A DNA stretch of 64,000 nt from an uncultured Gammaproteobacteria bacterium (GTDB lineage Bacteria; Pseudomonadota; Gammaproteobacteria; UBA9214), in contig CAVYZN010000011.1 in the NCBI GenBank assembly GCA_963773065.1, forward strand, positions 224,001 through 288,000, in the 5' to 3' direction. The first letter of the stretch is position 1. The number at the start of each line of letters is the position of its first letter. Positions 2,500 through 11,729 of this stretch are shown here, in pieces. A model generated the notes under the pieces. The model saw nothing but the letters and a program-made list of their open reading frames with translations. It searched no databases and was not told the DNA's origin. Made by a program: the position numbers and the translations under genes.

Positions 2500-4593
2500 A
2501 TGGCACGCAAACCCCGTAAAACCAGTATGACGCCAGGTAAGGTCCGTGAAACAATGAGCCAAATTGCGAAAGCTGTTCGGCCTGTTGCAGCCGCTGGTGG
2601 CAAGCAACGCTTCCTGTATACCCGCCCGGACGGCATCGATTTTCGGGACAAAATGTACATCCCCACGCTGGTCGAGGTGCCGGTACAGCGCGAGTTAAAG
2701 GCGTACCGTGAGGCGGGCGCTCCGATACTCGATCAGGGGGAAGAGGGCGCTTGCACCGGATTTGGTCTTGCCACGGTTGCTCACTACCTGCTCTTAACCC
2801 GGATGGACTCCCGCGATCCTGCGCCTATTAGCCCGTTTATGTTCTATGACATGGCACGACGGTATGATGAATGGGCGGGTGAGGACTACGAAGGTTCGAG
2901 CTGTCGGGGAGCAATCAAGGGCTGGTACAAACATGGTGTCTGTAAGCAGTCGCTGTGGCTCTCAAGCTCCAAGAAGAACAAAGCTTTAAGCCAGGATGTC
3001 GTCGCCGACGCGGCAGTACGGCCGCTCGGTGCGTACTTCCGGGTCAATCACAAGGATCTGGTGGCGATGCACTCCGCCATAACGGAGACCGGGGTTCTCT
3101 ACGCAAGTGCCACGGTGCATACGGGCTGGGAAAAGGTGAAGTCCAACGGCAAGGTTCGCTTCGAGACGACGCCGCTGGGCGGCCACGCTTTTGCGATCGT
3201 CGCTTATGATCAAGAGGGGTTCTGGATCCAGAATTCCTGGGGAGGGGATTGGGGCCGTGAAGGTTTCTGCCACATCACCTATCAGGACTGGCTTGTCAAC
3301 GGAACCGATGTTTGGGCTGCCCGCCTTGGCGCACCCGTCATGCTACCCGAGAGTATACGATCTGCCGAGACAACAATGGTTGGCTCGGTACGCTCCGGGG
3401 CATTTGTATACAACGATATTCGTCCACACGTCATCAGCATCAAGAACGACGGTCAGTTGGATGAACACGGTGATATCGCTACCTCGCAGGAGATGGTAAG
3501 TGAGATCCTCCAGGAGGATTTCCTGCGCATTACGGCCGGTTGGAAGAAAAAGCGGTTGGTGCTCTACGCCCATGGTGGTCTCGTGGGGGAAGAGGCCGCC
3601 CTGCAACGGATCTCTGACTACCGCAAGGCGACGCTGGAAGCTGAGTGCTATCCATTGGCCTTCATCTGGAAGTCCGATTATTGGACCACGCTCAAGAATA
3701 TGCTGCTCGATGCAACCCAGCGTCGGCGCCCCGAGGGTTTTCTGGATAGCTCCAAGGACTTCATGCTGGATCGACTCGACGACGCGCTGGAACCGATCGC
3801 TCGGGTTTTCACCGGTAAGGCAGAGTGGAGCGAGATGAAAGAGAACGCACTCCTGGCCACCACCTCGGCCACCGGCGGTGCCCGCATGGTTGCGGACGAA
3901 ATCGCGAAGCTGGTTAGAAACAACGACGACGTGGAACTGCACATTGTCGGGCACAGTGCGGGCAGCATCTTCCATGCACCGCTCGTTCAATACCTCACGG
4001 GACAGGGCGTGATCGGCTCAGGGCCGATGGCGCCTTTAAAAGTCAAAGGACTGGGCTTGAAGATTGAGACCTGTACTCTCTGGGCACCGGCCTGTACGAC
4101 CCGGCTATTTAAGGAAAGCTACCTTCCTTCCATCGACCAAGGTCTGATTGACCGATTTGCGCTGTTTACACTCACCGACAAGGCTGAACAGGACGATGAC
4201 TGTGCCAATATCTACCACAAATCCCTGCTATACCTGGTATCCAACGCCTTCGAGGAGACGGCGAGAATCCCGATGATTCACCCCGACGGCGAGCCGATCT
4301 TGGGCATGCAAAAATGCGTCGATGGCGATGCTGCTTTAAAGAGCATTTTCAAGCAGAAGAAAGCCGATTGGATCCTGTCACCGAACATTAATTCCGTGGG
4401 TTCCGCGAACGCGTCTCAGTCGATGCACCACGGTGATTTTGATGACGACGAGGCGACCGTCAAGGCGACCTTGGCCCGTATCCTTGGAAAGTCCAGTGCA
4501 AAGAGTGATTTTACATTTCAACACAGTGCAATATCCCGTCGTGGTATTAGACGCCATATCGACGGTGAACAAGATGCTACACTCACCCGTTAG
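2500..4593 (+). CDS. C1 (papain-family) cysteine peptidase fused to a C-terminal alpha/beta-hydrolase domain
   Basis: DQGEEGACTGF (oxyanion Q, catalytic C), GGHAF (H), QNSWG (N); C-terminal YAHGGL and GHSAG nucleophile elbow; RBS ggagg upstream. Confidence 0.85.
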   Translation: MARKPRKTSMTPGKVRETMSQIAKAVRPVAAAGGKQRFLYTRPDGIDFRDKMYIPTLVEVPVQRELKAYREAGAPILDQGEEGACTGFGLATVAHYLLLTRMDSRDPAPISPFMFYDMARRYDEWAGEDYEGSSCRGAIKGWYKHGVCKQSLWLSSSKKNKALSQDVVADAAVRPLGAYFRVNHKDLVAMHSAITETGVLYASATVHTGWEKVKSNGKVRFETTPLGGHAFAIVAYDQEGFWIQNSWGGDWGREGFCHITYQDWLVNGTDVWAARLGAPVMLPESIRSAETTMVGSVRSGAFVYNDIRPHVISIKNDGQLDEHGDIATSQEMVSEILQEDFLRITAGWKKKRLVLYAHGGLVGEEAALQRISDYRKATLEAECYPLAFIWKSDYWTTLKNMLLDATQRRRPEGFLDSSKDFMLDRLDDALEPIARVFTGKAEWSEMKENALLATTSATGGARMVADEIAKLVRNNDDVELHIVGHSAGSIFHAPLVQYLTGQGVIGSGPMAPLKVKGLGLKIETCTLWAPACTTRLFKESYLPSIDQGLIDRFALFTLTDKAEQDDDCANIYHKSLLYLVSNAFEETARIPMIHPDGEPILGMQKCVDGDAALKSIFKQKKADWILSPNINSVGSANASQSMHHGDFDDDEATVKATLARILGKSSAKSDFTFQHSAISRRGIRRHIDGEQDATLTR

Positions 4594-5349: not shown

Positions 5350-6035
5350 ATGAACGTCGGCTGGGGTTCACCGCGGATTGTTGGGGAGCTGCGCAAGCTC
5401 CGCATTGATGTCGCAAAATCAACCGTGGAGAAGTAGCGGGTGCGATTCAGGAAACCACCGTCGCCAACGTGGAAGGCTTTTCTGAACAATCATGTTGTGA
5501 CTTGGTGTCTATCGATTTCTTCGTGGTGCCGACAGTAAGATTCAAGGTAATGTTCGTCTTGGTAGTCCTTGCACATCACCGTCGCAGGGTGGTGCACTTC
5601 AACGTCACGGCGCATCCCACCGCCCAGTGGTCCACCCGGCAGATCATTGAAGCTTTGCCCTGGGATATGGCGCCGAAGTATCTACTGCGGGACCGAGATG
5701 CTATCTATGGGAACCAATTCCAGAAGCGCATCCAAAGCGTGGGCATCGAAGAGGTTATCACTGCACCACGATGCCCTTGGCAGAATGCATTTGTCGAACG
5801 CGTGATGGGTAGCATCCGGCGAAATTGCCTGGATCATGTCCTCGTGTTGAACGATTGTCATCTGAAACGAATTCTTACCTGCTATTTCGACTATTATCAT
5901 CGCTGGCGCATGCACCTGTCGCTGGCAATGGATAGTCCTGAATCGCGATCGGTGCAACTGTCAGCGCTGGGAAAGGTCGTACAATTTCCAGAAGTCGGTG
6001 GACTACATCATCATTACGAACGGCTGACGGCGTGA
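5350..6035 (+). pseudogene. rve/integrase-core transposase remnant
   Basis: WGSPRIVGELRKL..VAKSTVEK*, frameshift, SIDFFVVPT...YLLRDRD...PWQNAFVERVMGSIRR...GGLHHHYER; internal stop. Confidence 0.85.
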
Positions 6036-6363
6036 TATGAGTTTTCGGGAAGCACAGACACAATCCTGCAAGATTTCGCGGTGCTGGCGGGCCAATGGCC
6101 TGCCAGCACCGTTGAACTACCTGTTGACCTTTGAGGAAAAGGGCGTTTATCTTTCCTAGCCGCTGGACTTGACCCGCTTCCGTGGACACTTCATCTTCAC
6201 AAAGAGAGGTGTTCGAGATGGCAAAAAAGCAGAGAATGTACACGCCGGAGTTCCGGCTGTTGTTGCCGGAGTAAAAGCGCGGCTATTTGCCGCGACTGTT
6301 TGCCGTATCCAGGCATAACAGCTTATGGACGCTATCGGTGGCGCCCGTATCAGTGCCGCCTAG

Positions 6364-7930
6364 CAGCCTGTCGGACTTAGACCGACACTGCTAAAATAAC
6401 ACCAACAAAACCAAGCGTAACAAACAAACATGGCCCGATTCCGCGAGATAGACCGAGACACCGACTTCCTGTTTCCGCCATCGGTACAGAACTGGCTGCC
6501 GAAGGAGCACCTGGCGCGCTACATTGCCAACGTGGTCGAGAGCCTGGACCTTGGCGCGATCGAACGCGTCTACGCAGGACGCGGCAGCGATGCGTATCAC
6601 CCCGCCACGCTGATGAGCCTGCTGATTTACGGCTATGCCACAGGCGTGTTCTCCAGCCGCCAGATCGAGCGGGCCACCTACGATTCGGTTGCCTTCCGGT
6701 ATCTGGCGTGCAACCGTCACCCTGATCACGACACGCTGGCGAATTTCCGGCGCCGCTTTGGCAACGAATTCAGTTCGCTGTTTGTGCAGGTGTTGCAGAT
6801 TGCCCACGCCAATCGCTTCAGCCAATTCGGCACGGTGAGTCTGGATGGCACCAAGATACACGCCAACGCCAGTCGGCACAGCGCGCGCTCCTATGGGCAC
6901 GCTGAGAAGCTGGAAGTGCACCTCAAGAATGAGGTTCAGGAATTACTTGCGCTGGCCGAGCAGGCGGATCAGCGGGGTGTCCCCGAGGGTATGAATGTTC
7001 CGGATGAGATCACGCGGCGGGAAGATCAGCTGCGTGCGATTGCGCAGGCCAAGGCGAAGATCGAAGCGCGGGTGAAGGAGCGCTACGAGCGGGAGAAGCG
7101 TGAGTACGATGCCAAGGTGAAGGCGCGCGAAGAGAAGGAAGCCAAGACGGGCAAGAAGCCAGGTGGCAGCGCACCGACTGCACCGACCGCGACGCCGCGT
7201 GCGCAAGATCAAGTGAATCTCACGGACGATGAATCCCGGATCATGAAGGTGGCGGCCGGTGGGTTCGAACAGTGCTACAACGCGCAAGCGATGGTGGACA
7301 CGGAGAGCCTGTTGGTTTTGGTGGCGGACGTGAGCCAAGAAGCGAACGACAAGCAACAGGTTGTGCCGATGCTGGAGCAGCTCGACACGCTGCCCGAGGG
7401 ACTGAATTTGCCCAAGGCGCTGCTGGCCGATGCCGGCTACTACAGCGAAGGGAACATCGATGCGTGTTGCAAGGCGGAGATCGAACCGCTGATCGCCGCG
7501 GGCAGGGAAGGCCACCATGAGAACTGGAAGACACGATTCGGCGAGCCGGAACCGCTGGCCGCGGATGCCACGCGTGCGGAGACGATGAGGCACCGCCTCA
7601 AGACACGCGCCGGTAAGAAAGAATACGCGCTACGCAAGCAAACGGTTGAGCCGGTGTTCGGCATCATCAAGTCGGTGATGAAATTCCGGCAGTTCATGTT
7701 GCGTGGTTTGAGGCAAGTTCGCAGCGAGTGGACGCTGGTGTGCCTGGCGTGGAATTTGAAGCGCATGGCCGTATTGCGTCCAAAATTTGCCGGATGCGGT
7801 TGAAATGCAGGAAAACCGGGGAATACTGCAGTCGATACGACACAGGACGCCACTGATAGGCTAAATATTGAGCAAATCGCAACCGTGGCGATCGAAATCC
7901 CTCGTCAGCGGTTTCAAGTCCGACAGCCTG
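6364..7930 (+). mobile_element. IS1182-family insertion sequence nested in the IS21-like element
   Basis: IRs cagcctgtcggactt / aagtccgacagcctg; CTAG duplicated at 6360-6363 and 7931-7934. Confidence 0.9.
6430..7803 (+). CDS. IS1182-family transposase
   Basis: LPKEHLAR, YHPATL..LLIYGY..GVFSSRQIE, PDHDT, DGTKIHANAS, ADAGYYS, RKQTVEPVFG motifs; intact 457 aa. Confidence 0.92.
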   Translation: MARFREIDRDTDFLFPPSVQNWLPKEHLARYIANVVESLDLGAIERVYAGRGSDAYHPATLMSLLIYGYATGVFSSRQIERATYDSVAFRYLACNRHPDHDTLANFRRRFGNEFSSLFVQVLQIAHANRFSQFGTVSLDGTKIHANASRHSARSYGHAEKLEVHLKNEVQELLALAEQADQRGVPEGMNVPDEITRREDQLRAIAQAKAKIEARVKERYEREKREYDAKVKAREEKEAKTGKKPGGSAPTAPTATPRAQDQVNLTDDESRIMKVAAGGFEQCYNAQAMVDTESLLVLVADVSQEANDKQQVVPMLEQLDTLPEGLNLPKALLADAGYYSEGNIDACCKAEIEPLIAAGREGHHENWKTRFGEPEPLAADATRAETMRHRLKTRAGKKEYALRKQTVEPVFGIIKSVMKFRQFMLRGLRQVRSEWTLVCLAWNLKRMAVLRPKFAGCG

Positions 7931-8134
7931 CTAGAACTCAAGGTCGTCATCGAACTGAAGCTCGGCCTGCTGCTCGTTTGCGCCCTGGGTAACGGTTTCC
8001 TCGCGAAGCAGATCAATGATCTGATCGCCATAGATCTCCCAGAGCTGATCTCGAAGCACCTCCAGGAATTCGATGACGGCATGGGCTTCCGGGGCGTCCC
8101 AGTAGGTGTATAAGCGTGTGACTTTCATCGACAT
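7931..8134 (-). CDS. small acidic accessory protein of the IS21-like element
   Basis: 67-aa ORF starting 2 bp after the istB stop, inside the element IRs; ends QQAELQFDDDLEF. Confidence 0.7.
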   Translation of the reverse strand: MSMKVTRLYTYWDAPEAHAVIEFLEVLRDQLWEIYGDQIIDLLREETVTQGANEQQAELQFDDDLEF

Positions 8135-8136
8135 GG

Positions 8137-8946
8137 TCAGCGGTCTCCTGCGGGCGTTCTTGGAGTGGCGCTACGCGTGGATTTCGTGGATTTCTTCTTC
8201 CTGCTGGCGCGCTCCTTCGCCTCTCGGAAGCGATAGGACTCGCCCTCGAGGACGATGATCTCGGAGTGATGCACCAGGCGATCGACGATTGAGATCACGC
8301 AGGCTGCGTTGGGGAACACCTCGTTCCACTCGCCAAAGGGTCGGTTTGTGGTCACAATCGTTGGCTTGAGCTCATAGCGTTGATTAACGATGTTGAACAG
8401 CAGATCCGCATGGCGACTGCCGTAGGAGAGGTAACCGACTTCATCGATCACCAGCACCTGTGGATGCGCGTAGTGTTTCAGGCGTCGGCGCAAGGCGTTG
8501 TCACCCTCCTGTGCCGCCAGGTCCCCGAGCATCTGGGCGGAGTTGACGAACAAGGCGCTGTGTCCCTGCAGGACGGCGTGATGCACGATGTTCTGTGCGA
8601 TGGTGGATTTGCCGACGCCGTTGGGCCCGACCAGAATGACGTTGGTGGCGTCCTTGATGAAGTTGAGGCGCATCAGCTCTGAGACGGCCGCCTTGTCGCA
8701 CTGCGCGGGCCAGTCCCAGTCGAAGTCAGCGAGGGGTTTGAAGCGGCCGATGTGCGCCGCGCTCAGCCGTCGTTCCAGACCGCGGCGCTTGCGCTCGCTG
8801 TCCTCCCACTGGAGCAACGCCCTCACCCAGTCGATCTGCGGGTCGCTCAGCTCCTCCCAGTGCGCAACCAGCCCATGGAGCTTGAGCGCGAGCGCCCGCT
8901 GCTTGAGCGCTTCCTGAGGGATCCCTGCATCAGCGGTTCTCGTCAT
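8137..8946 (-). CDS. istB: IS21-family helper AAA+ ATPase IstB
   Basis: Walker A GPNGVGKS, Walker B LVIDEVGY, TTNRPF..W, DRLVHH..GESYR; probable start ATG 8946 overlapping the istA end. Confidence 0.93.
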   Translation of the reverse strand: MTRTADAGIPQEALKQRALALKLHGLVAHWEELSDPQIDWVRALLQWEDSERKRRGLERRLSAAHIGRFKPLADFDWDWPAQCDKAAVSELMRLNFIKDATNVILVGPNGVGKSTIAQNIVHHAVLQGHSALFVNSAQMLGDLAAQEGDNALRRRLKHYAHPQVLVIDEVGYLSYGSRHADLLFNIVNQRYELKPTIVTTNRPFGEWNEVFPNAACVISIVDRLVHHSEIIVLEGESYRFREAKERASRKKKSTKSTRSATPRTPAGDR

Positions 8947-10512
8947 CGGTGCGCTCCTGTTGCTCTGCCATCTCGGCGGCGTCGTCGGTGTCGAGTTGAT
9001 CGTAGGCCGCCAGGGAGGCGGGACGCACCACGATGTTTCTCGCCTTGGCGTTGTCCGGCAGCACGATGGCCAGCGGTGGCGGCAGGTGGCGCTGCTCACG
9101 CGCTCGCTCCAGCGCCTGGCGCACCGCATTGGGGTGCGGAACCCCGTTGGCGAGCGCCTCGGCGATGGCGTGCTCGAGCGCGCTTGCACCGTATTCGTCG
9201 AGCAGCCGGGTCAGCTGCGAGACGACCTGGCTCAGGCGGTTGCCCCGCTCGGCCGCCTCGCGCAGCAACTGGCGGCTCGACGGCGCCGCGTGCGCCAGGC
9301 GGTCCTGACCGCGGTGCTGGCGTGCGCCGCGCTTGGCATCGATCAACGCCTCGATATGGCCCGGATCCTCGATCTGCTCGCCCTTGCCATAGACGCGCCG
9401 GTGCTCGGCAATCACCGCGCCGGCGTCAAGCACCCGCACCTGGGTCGGCGAGGCCAGGACCGTCACGGTGCGCCGCACCTGGGTGTGCGGCACCGAGTAG
9501 TCATTAAGATCAAAGCGGATATACGGTGTCTTGCCGACACTCACTTCGAGGCGTTCCTCGGTGGGATAGGGATTGTCCGGTAAGGCAATGAGCTGCGCGC
9601 GCTCCTGCTCGAAGGCGTCCCTGACGGTGATAGCGGGGTCTTCCGGACACGGGCGGTTGGCACTGAGGCCCGAGTACCAGGCCGCGGCCTGCGCATTCAA
9701 GTCCTCGACATCCGACCATTGACGACCGGCAAAGAAGCTGTCGCGGATGTAGCGGATCGCCCGCTCGACACGGCCTTTTTCATTGCCTCGCGCGGGCGCC
9801 ACCGGCCGCGGCTCGAAGCGATAGTGTGCCGACAGCGCCAGCAGCGTGGGGTGAAAACGGATCGCCTCGCCCTGGCGCTCGAGCACGGCGGAGCGCAAGT
9901 TATCGTAGAGCAGCACCCGCGCCACACCCCCGCAGGCGCTGAACGCCGCGACGTGCCCGCGCAGGAAGTTGTCCATGCGTTGGTTGAGATAAAAGCGCAG
10001 GAAGATCTGCCGGCTCCAGCTCAACACCATCACGAAGGCCATCAACGGGCGCTGCGCCCGGCCGATCTGTACCTGCCCGAAGTGCCCCCAGTCGATCTGT
10101 GCCTCGGCAACTGCTCCTGCGTTGCTCTACCTCCTGCATCCATGCAGTCGTGCTCGCCCGGCAGGGTTCGCAGTCGCAGATACGCCTCACTGGGCTTGCG
10201 CGGGCGCAGCTGCGCCACATGCGCCCTGAACTGGCTCGCCCCACCGGCGTAGCCGCGCGCCTGCGCCATGGCATACAGGCGTGCGGCGGTGAGCCGGGGA
10301 AACTGCGCGAGCGTCTCGATGATCATCGGGTGGTAGGGATCGACGATCGAGGCTTGGCGGGTGCGCTCGGCTTTGGGCAAGCCCGCCTGCGAGAGCACCC
10401 GATCGACGCTGGAGTGATGAATACCCAGTTGCGCGGCAATGGTGTTCACCCCCCAGCGCTCCACGAAGTGATAGCGCAGAATCTTCGCTTCCTGTTCCTT
10501 GTCGATCGTCAA
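8930..10512 (-). pseudogene. istA: IS21-family transposase IstA, frameshifted by a 47-bp insertion
   Basis: N-terminal HTH (IAAQLGIHHSSV), PGE..QIDWGHF, LYDNLRSAV, NEKGRVER. Removing 10104-10150 restores one 511-aa ORF. Confidence 0.9.
10104..10150 (-). repeat. 47-bp double-hairpin miniature insertion
   Basis: cgactgcatggatgcaggaggtagagcaacgcaggagcagttgccga interrupts codons GAG CA|G GCA CAG (E-Q-A-Q); hairpins ctgca-tgga-tgcag and gcaac-gc-agga-gc-a-gttgc. Confidence 0.8.
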
Positions 10513-11108: not shown

Positions 11109-11729
11109 TGTCTTACCAACTTTCAGATTCTCTGTCACCTGATTCGGGTGACTCCGCGCCCCGTCAAACCTCGTTCTTGCACACCGAGTCGTCAACGCAG
11201 ACCTCAAGTGCAGGGGTGCGCCTCGAATACAGTCGCGGCAAATAGCCGCGGGTTTTGGTCGGCACTTACATCCGGCAACAGATGGTTGAGCTGGTCCGTG
11301 CGGGCCGCAAGTATGCGGAACTGGAAAAGGAGTTTGGCTGCACCGGCTGGTCGATCCGGCAAAGGGTCAAGCAGGCCGATCGGGATTCGGGTCGGGGAGA
11401 CGGTGGCCTGACGAACGAAGAGCGACAGGAGCTGATGCGGCTGCGGCGTGAGAACCGGCAGCTCAAGCTGGAGCGGGAGATCCTGTCAAAAGCCGCGGCT
11501 TGGTTTGCGAAGGAGAGCACCGCGACACCGAAGCGCTCTTCGGATTCGTGAAGGCACACCAGGCCCATTATCCGGTACGTGTCATGTGCCGGTTGCTCAA
11601 GATCTCCCAGAGCGGCTTCTACGCATGGGACGGTCGAGCGTTGTCGGCGCGTGCGCGCGAGGACATCGGCCTGACGGCGCTGATCCACGGTATCCATCGC
11701 CGCTCCAAAGGCGCGTACGGGGCGCCATC

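Follow-up and report, generated by a model that had tools for sequence, protein, structure and literature searches.

Transposons that pair a transposase with an AAA+ ATPase, such as Mu, Tn7, Tn5053 and IS21, choose their targets via the ATPase, and Tn7 adds selector proteins to this machinery. In the operons of Tn5053 and Tn7-like elements the TniQ gene is placed directly after that of the ATPase. TnsB and TnsC of Tn7 are related to IstA and IstB of the IS21 family, for which Faure et al. 2023 state that no target selector has been reported (PMC10293859), and the accessible part of the paper on the IS21 holo-transpososome makes no mention of a host factor, a target selector, an accessory protein or the replication fork (PMC11208146). 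We analysed a window of 64,000 nucleotides (nt) from the genome of an uncultured gammaproteobacterium of the lineage UBA9214 (contig CAVYZN010000011.1, positions 224,001 to 288,000), which carries an IS21-family insertion sequence (IS). The last gene of this element is a small open reading frame (ORF) that follows istB, and the end of its product resembles the C-terminal tip of SSB, the protein that binds single-stranded DNA. The features on which the analysis is centred are the following.

7931 to 8134, minus strand: small ORF, 67 amino acids (aa) plus a TAG stop, last gene of the IS21-family element, ending in ...QAELQFDDDLEF
8144 to 8149, minus strand: AGGAGA ribosome-binding site of the small ORF, 9 nt ahead of the ATG and within the 3′ end of istB
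7982 to 8095, minus strand: helix, residues 14-51, the conserved N-terminal module, amphipathic (from AlphaFold2, the alignment and the ratio of nonsynonymous to synonymous substitution rates, dN/dS)
7970 to 7999, minus strand: linker, residues 46-55, variable and presumably disordered (dN/dS 0.94, low predicted local distance difference test score (pLDDT), variable length and sequence in the family)
7934 to 7969, minus strand: tail, residues 56-67, QAELQFDDDLEF, acidic, ended by Phe, like the C-terminus of SSB and overlapping a clamp-like motif Q-x-x-L-x-F
8137 to 8946, minus strand: istB, 269 aa, the helper AAA+ ATPase of IS21, extended at the C-terminus by a basic stretch (PF01695, E 7.8e-56; NF038214, 209.9 bits against a cut-off of 200)

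The ATG of the small ORF (8134-8132) lies 2 nt downstream of the istB stop codon (8137-8139). An earlier reading of this DNA, made from the letters alone (the sequence-only reading), had proposed a 67-aa ORF coupled to istB whose product has an amphipathic helical core and an acidic tail, and both proposals were borne out: the ORF lies where it had been placed, with the 2-nt gap and an AGGAGA of its own, and structure prediction gave a single helix followed by a tail of low confidence. With a shallow alignment, AlphaFold2 predicted one long helix over residues 14-53; with 97 diverse sequences the helix covered residues 14-51 with a pLDDT of ~95 and the tail was unstructured. Among the residues of the N-terminal module that are invariant or nearly so in the alignment are A17, I21, F23, L24, L27, R28, L31, Y35, G36 and D37. 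In this arrangement of a folded module, a variable linker and a conserved tip, the protein resembles the C-terminal half of SSB.

Relatives of the small protein were numerous. A word-indexed search gave 42 proteins of 54-99% identity, nearly all 67-69 aa long, and a profile search of 1.84 billion representatives gave 340 clusters at E <= 1e-3, 72 of them at E <= 1e-10. Across the family the length is ~60-72 aa, and the frame, the start context and the terminal Phe are kept. Among the representatives of at most 140 aa, 108 of 143 end in Phe (109 of 144 if the fusion-frame protein P0033, described below, is counted), and several of those with other ends resemble read-through or truncated forms; of the distinct complete small ORFs taken from genome and metagenome loci, 79 out of 83 end in Phe. 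When the 108 Phe-ending representatives were anchored at the C-terminus, the following residue counts were obtained.

Position -12: Q in 49
Position -9: L in 36
Position -7: F in 57
Position -6: D in 55
Position -5: D in 77
Position -4: D in 50, E in 23
Position -3: I in 50, L in 11, V in 8
Position -2: P in 51, D in 21, E in 19
Position -1: F in all 108

The C-terminal consensus of the family is thus Q-x-x-L-x-F-D-D-D-I-P-F, and many members have the exact end ...DFDDDIPF. As given in the accessible text of the source, DDDIPF is the SSB-Ct motif (PMC5872125). The window host's own SSB, which we located by PF00436, ends in ...EPDFDDDIPF, and the SSBs of the six hosts examined all end in [IL]PF after acidic residues. 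As a control, all stop-to-stop frames of 50 aa or longer were taken from the whole genome, read in six frames, and their ends were searched for DD[DE][ILVM]xF or F[DE]3[ILVM]x[FWY]. Two of 41,786 frames had such an end, namely the host SSB and the small ORF, so the SSB-like end is more than a product of chance. Compared with the definition of an acidic tip with [I/L]-P-F behind a linker, the family consensus FDDDIPF fits; the ends of the window (FDDDLEF) and of the second copy of the element in this genome (FDDDPEF) lack the Pro at -2. The sequence-only reading had expected DD(I/L)(P/E)F to be kept at the ends of homologues and had named an unconserved tail as the result that would speak against it. 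The 108-member consensus and a tail dN/dS of 0.21 came out stronger than expected, and the tail is the hallmark of the family. It was also considered whether the tails copy the SSB of each host exactly; this idea was ruled out, as the two ends were alike but not identical in the six genomes.

The small ORF is a genuine gene under selection. Over 18 coding sequences of the family, pairwise NG86 (Nei-Gojobori) estimates gave a whole-gene median dN/dS of 0.22, and the medians of the parts were 0.20 (codons 1-45), 0.94 (linker, codons 46-55) and 0.21 (tail, codons 56-67). The protein is therefore made of two constrained parts separated by a linker that evolves freely. No named family was found for it in Pfam (best match GLE1, E 0.045, below the cut-off), NCBIfam, PHROGs or PADLOC; the PDB sequence search gave no relative (best E 0.46), and the ESM Atlas search returned only unnamed clusters of the small-protein family itself. 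As regards SSB in particular (PF00436), the 67-aa protein had no SSB match in Pfam or NCBIfam, and its AlphaFold2 model is a single helix with no oligonucleotide/oligosaccharide-binding (OB) fold. Four long proteins (P0061, P0069, P0093 and P0119, of 862-1281 aa) showed 6-11 helix matches each to the small-protein profile, with a summed E down to 7e-17, which are probably repeat or coiled-coil noise.

The genomic context was counted in 91 loci whose sequence reached 300 nt or more beyond the small ORF on its upstream side. A transposition AAA+ ATPase gene stood directly before it in 84 of them, and this was IstB in 75 (73 by a count based on tblastn, and L068 and L030 by inspection) and an AAA_22 ATPase of the TniB/MuB-like kind in 9 (3 verified by Pfam, 6 judged by sequence likeness). 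In the latter loci the order was a transposase of the rve type with a Mu-transposase C-terminal domain, the AAA_22 ATPase and the small ORF. The remaining 7 loci had no ATPase ORF just upstream. One of these, L016 in another genome (5923-6147; protein P0033), is a deletion derivative of the same IS, in which istA codon 28 is fused to codon 4 of the small ORF in a 98-aa frame. A long upstream ORF was present in 72 loci; in none of them did more than 35 nt separate its stop from the start of the small ORF, and in 36 the gap was -4, an ATGA overlap. The small proteins coupled to AAA_22 are 39-70% identical to those coupled to IstB and adjoin three IstB-coupled sublineages, so the gene has moved between transposon types more than once. 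Its function therefore does not hinge on a single ATPase family, which is what a host-directed module would lead one to expect.

Two plasmids illustrate the two contexts. That of Methylotuvimicrobium alcaliphilum 20Z carries istA, istB and a small ORF ending in DFNDEIPF, labelled "hypothetical protein", and that of Undibacterium sp. KW1 carries a DDE integrase, an AAA ATPase and a "hypothetical protein" small ORF ending in DDDESF, together with extra partial copies. On the KW1 plasmid (L115, 2028-4689) it was also possible to see three identical copies of the small gene within 1.8 kb; copies 1 and 2 are each preceded by an "AAA family ATPase" gene, which is shorter in the case of copy 2, and copy 3 has no annotated gene directly before it. 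This arrangement is a local tandem duplication of the ATPase-small-gene unit. The family was present in 4 of 401 sampled genomes of the phylum, our own included, and strong IstB matches were common in the same sample (without an exact count); only a minority of IS21-like elements carry it. The genome of the window has two more strong IstB loci, and neither gave a match to the small ORF.

The reading that we favour is that the small protein is a portable hook, whose SSB-like tail would engage the host proteins that partner SSB, and possibly the beta clamp, and would in this way couple transposition to replication or repair; we consider the chances for and against it to be balanced. The protein is a conserved accessory of a subgroup of IS21 and, in a more distant version, of transposons that combine an rve transposase with an AAA_22 ATPase, and its translation keeps step with that of the transposition ATPase. 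Its helical module of ~45 residues would serve for self-association or for the binding of a transposition protein, and a tail of 9-12 residues, an acidic run with [I/L]-x-Phe-COOH behind the freely evolving linker, would dock in the pockets of host proteins that normally take the SSB tip. That tip is a hub peptide by which genome-maintenance proteins are recruited, among them PriA, RecQ, exonuclease I and, from the clamp loader, its chi subunit. Binding of the beta clamp by the overlapping Q-x-x-L-x-F is a further possibility. A target marked by the ATPase, or the strand-transfer complex, would then be tied to forks, gaps or restart and repair factors, and the tail could either serve as a hook for target choice, in the manner of Tn7's TnsE, or bring in gap repair or restart. 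Its effect may be to recruit, as a hook, or to compete, as a decoy. In a more specific form, which we put forward tentatively and with less conviction, an SSB-tip mimic fused to a clamp-binding motif would make the protein a portable "replisome hook", the host-coupling or target-selecting subunit of IS21 and AAA_22 transposons; the target-capture ATPase would be delivered to forks, gaps or restart complexes, or such factors would be brought to the strand-transfer product.

The clamp-like part of the tail requires separate consideration. The hexapeptide form of the clamp-binding motif is Q-L-x-L-x-L. A consensus Q-L-x-L-F is given in the accessible text of PMC4549789, according to which the beta clamp is used by the transposases of many IS families, by TnpA of Tn3 and by TnsE. 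In the QAELQF of the window, Q1, L4 and F6 fit this motif and position 2 does not. The pattern Q-x-x-[LIMF]-x-[FLM] was present within the last 22 residues of 61 of the 143 representatives, versus 6.2 +/- 2.4 in shuffled sequences (maximum 14 in 1000), and in 46 of the 61 its Q is the one at -12. Considering that the F at -7 also belongs to the SSB-like tip and that position 2 is Leu in only 13 of the 108 Phe-ending representatives, it is just the conserved Gln that would argue specifically for a clamp motif, and a functional one in the tail seems doubtful to us. Of the claims of the sequence-only reading, the SSB-like tail stood as conserved and selected; the designation of QAELQF as a clamp motif kept the enrichment of the pattern in its favour and lost ground by the misfit at position 2 and the Phe common to both motifs. 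Its further proposal, that replication and repair proteins are recruited or titrated or that insertion is steered toward forks, stays at the level of inference.

By comparison with the described systems, the small protein has in common with the SSB tip an acidic tail with a hydrophobic residue, any residue and Phe-COOH after a flexible linker, and its consensus FDDDIPF is the end of the host SSB; it differs in having no OB fold or SSB domain, its body being one helix of ~40 residues, in being encoded by a transposon and, in the window's clade, in having E, D or K at -2 where SSB has P. Like TnsE, the Tn7 target selector that uses the beta clamp to direct insertion into replicating DNA, it is an accessory encoded beside a transposase and an AAA+ ATPase and carries a short motif aimed at a replisome hub, and by analogy it would give the same kind of fork-directed targeting; TnsE, in contrast, is large and multidomain, and the motif of the small protein is primarily SSB-like and not clamp-like. 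With the clamp motifs of IS-family and Tn3-family transposases, as they are described in the accessible text of PMC4549789, it shares a short C-terminal motif in a disordered region, with a conserved Gln at the start and a hydrophobic or aromatic end, but here the motif is on a separate small protein, seldom has Leu at position 2, and is fused to, and partly common with, the SSB-like tip. The place in the operon is that of TniQ in Tn5053/Tn7-like elements, and in 9 loci the companions are likewise an rve transposase and an AAA_22 ATPase; unlike TniQ, the protein has ~65 aa, no zinc-finger or helix-turn-helix domains and no Pfam likeness to a named family, and in the Pfam search at E <= 0.1 no TniQ domain or other named family was found. 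The canonical IS21, with istA and istB only, shares with our element IstA and IstB, TGT ends with inner repeats and a target duplication of 5-6 bp; ours differs in its length of 3.4 kb and in two extra conserved genes, a Cys-rich ORF upstream and the small protein downstream. Taken together, the comparison suggests that the small protein would work through a short motif like the known couplings of transposons to the replisome, but with a tip of the SSB type, in place of a clamp motif or alongside one, on a separate mini-protein.

Several observations weigh against the portable hook. Residue -2 in the window's clade is E, D or K and not Pro. The small proteins of six genomes end in LEF, IEF, IEF, PPF, ITF and LDF where the host SSBs end in IPF, IPF, LPF, IPF, IPF and IPF, and the second copy in our genome has its Pro at -3 (FDDDPEF). 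A change of that Pro in the SSB of Escherichia coli (ssb-113) is said to weaken partner binding, so tails without it may have a low affinity or a different partner. Looser tails (...GERDEPF, ...DDDESF, ...EEEEHRF), in which only the acidity and the final Phe are retained, occur in some sublineages. Both copies of the element are non-autonomous as assembled, because a 47-bp insertion disrupts istA in each. Contigs of three metatranscriptome runs and one DNA run were compared with the uninterrupted copy; the RNA contigs of 99% identity covered parts of istB only and none lay over the small ORF, although such contigs can show neither transcription nor its absence. One contig of 90-95% identity, from a related element, takes in the IS end together with the final ~38 nt of the small ORF. 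A tie of the small protein to the transpososome through its N-terminal module would be conjectural.

The basic character of IstB has a bearing here, since in this subgroup the alignment shows a Lys/Arg-rich C-terminal extension that is opposite in charge to the tail of the small protein. This would fit an internal regulatory subunit, whose acidic tail docks on the ATPase of the element (on its basic surface, its tail or its DNA groove) or on the transposase and so adjusts how the ATPase assembles or the transposase is activated; the resemblance to SSB would then be convergent. The tight translational coupling, the residue at -2 and the sublineages with just acidity and a final Phe agree with such a subunit. 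However, the consensus equals the SSB tip at all seven positions, I-P-F included, a match that charge pairing does not need, and the same sublineages serve two ATPase families, of which the AAA_22 type has no basic tail; we regard this explanation as unlikely, though a serious one. Prediction of the complex of IstB and the small protein gave scores of 0.00 and 0.00 against a mark of 0.32, in a run without controls that speaks neither for nor against a contact. The evidence from the tail would apply in identical form to a free decoy, in which the helix self-associates away from the transpososome and the tails titrate SSB partners, such as nucleases and helicases, from SSB-coated DNA, so that transposition intermediates are protected or replication is briefly perturbed. 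An amphipathic helix of 38 residues would more likely be stable as an oligomer and would then present several tails, as in the SSB tetramer, and the portability between transposon types fits a stand-alone module. Nevertheless, the near-obligate place after the ATPase gene, with overlap of stop and start, suggests stoichiometric co-production, and a general decoy of SSB partners would probably be costly to the host, which makes the decoy rather improbable in our judgement.

The last genes of mobile elements are commonly small regulators, and the possibility of a small DNA-binding regulator of the ribbon-helix-helix kind (a strand, a helix, a turn at Y-G-D and a helix), which would repress the IS promoter or bind the ends and for which the tail would be secondary, was also weighed. 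Residues 3-12 alternate between polar and hydrophobic, and Y35-G36-D37 are nearly invariant, as such a fold would ask. Against this, the helix runs unbroken through YGD with a pLDDT of ~95 and no strand in two AlphaFold2 runs, although a fold confined to the dimer would escape a model of the monomer; there was no ribbon-helix-helix match in Pfam and no sequence relative in the PDB, and the constraint on the last 7 residues, which is as strong as that of a fold, would be left unexplained. We hold this regulator to be very improbable. That the small ORF is a chance, non-functional frame at the IS end has a probability close to nil: it is short, belongs to no known family and has no RNA contig of 99% identity over it, but hundreds of clusters keep its frame, length, start context and terminal Phe, and the median dN/dS of 0.22 follows the domains of the protein.

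The literature search, supplements and subscription journals being outside it, turned up neither a third protein of IS21 nor a transposon-borne mimic of the SSB tail. If the "replisome hook" is true, IS21 and the class of rve/AAA_22 transposons would have in the small protein their first described subunit for host coupling or target selection, and its tip would be the first known mobile-element copy of the SSB tip on a protein other than SSB. The SSB interaction hub would likewise gain a client, or a competitor, of a new kind; this hub, according to the accessible part of the literature, is studied as an antibacterial target. A family of hundreds of clusters in the position of a selector, with a docking peptide like that of SSB, gives a testable hypothesis for how replication or repair may be sensed, and annotators gain a name for a recurrent "hypothetical protein" adjoining istB.

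The remaining features of the element and of its surroundings in the window are listed below.

8930 to 10512, minus strand: istA transposase in two frames (10042-10512 and 8930-10045); NF033546 on both fragments, 73 and 151.6 bits
10540 to 11016, minus strand: Cys-rich ORF, 158 aa from GTG or 141 aa from ATG, conserved fourth gene upstream of istA
11229 to 11270, minus strand: IS21 left end, with the terminal TGT at 11270-11268, a 21-22-bp repeat and flanking GCCGGA
6258 to 6363, minus strand: IS21 right end, last ~100 bp, ending ...ACA, split off by the IS1182-type insertion
6364 to 7930, plus strand: IS1182-family element (transposase 6430-7803; NF033551, E 2e-108), inserted at CTAG

The element has the gene order Cys-rich ORF, istA, istB and small ORF, and is a member of the IS21 family by its IstA/IstB operon, its inverted and inner repeats and its target duplications. 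There are two copies in the genome, the second on another contig (L002) with 99.85% identity over 3347 bp. Comparison of both copies placed the ends at TGT...ACA, with a repeat of 21-22 bp inverted at the two ends; the flanks differ between the copies, with direct repeats GCCGGA in the window and GCTGG in the second copy. The IS1182-type element, which is foreign to the IS21 system, has inverted ends of 15 bp and CTAG duplications (6360-6363 and 7931-7934). Its insertion point coincides exactly with the stop codon of the small ORF, whose TAG lies in the duplicated CTAG, so that the ORF is intact and the right end of the IS21 is cut off. The idea that the small ORF stands at the very terminus of the IS was ruled out as an artefact of this insertion. 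In the uninterrupted second copy the IS continues for ~102 nt past the stop, which makes the small ORF the IS's last gene and not a gene of the flank; positions 4267-4377 of L002 match 6363-6253 of the window at 98%.

The Cys-rich ORF was found in 30 of the 37 related loci with at least 3200 nt upstream and had no match in Pfam, PHROG or PADLOC. It contains several CxxC pairs, an Arg-rich middle and a C-terminal motif CxxCxxC-PWLRR, which recurs on the Methylotuvimicrobium plasmid in a small ORF that precedes istA (E 1.4e-7). The ORF is also weakly similar (E ~0.008) to Cys-rich ORFs upstream of AAA_22-type elements, and it may be a second accessory gene common to both transposon types.

The insertion that shifts the istA frame lies immediately ahead of the QIDWG motif, at 10105-10151; the intact istA of a relative (locus L012) lacks it, and the second copy carries it too (L002, 2050-2096). 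This 47-bp sequence is a repeat of two hairpins for which BLAST gave 23 places in the genome, both istA sites included, and another search gave 27 short matches. Its second hairpin shows paired changes (GCAAC/GTTGC, GTAAC/GTTAC, GCAAT/ATTGC), and tandem units occur at some sites. There was no convincing match in Rfam (only mir-1180, E 0.45, at 19.7 bits where the gathering score is 49), and the fold was no more stable than that of shuffled sequences (z -0.68). The repeat may be of the kind of repetitive extragenic palindromic (REP) sequences or miniature inverted-repeat transposable elements (MITEs).

As regards the surroundings of both copies, a 312-aa frame in L002 (4088-5026, minus strand) runs from the flank into the right end of the IS21, antisense to the small ORF, and it looks as if the second copy had inserted into another gene. 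In the window, an integrase-core fragment of 188 aa (5469-6035, plus strand; rve_3, E 1.5e-10) adjoins the displaced IS21 end, and this region appears to be a pile-up of IS remnants. Just to the left of the IS cluster there is an ORF of 697 aa (2500-4593, plus strand).

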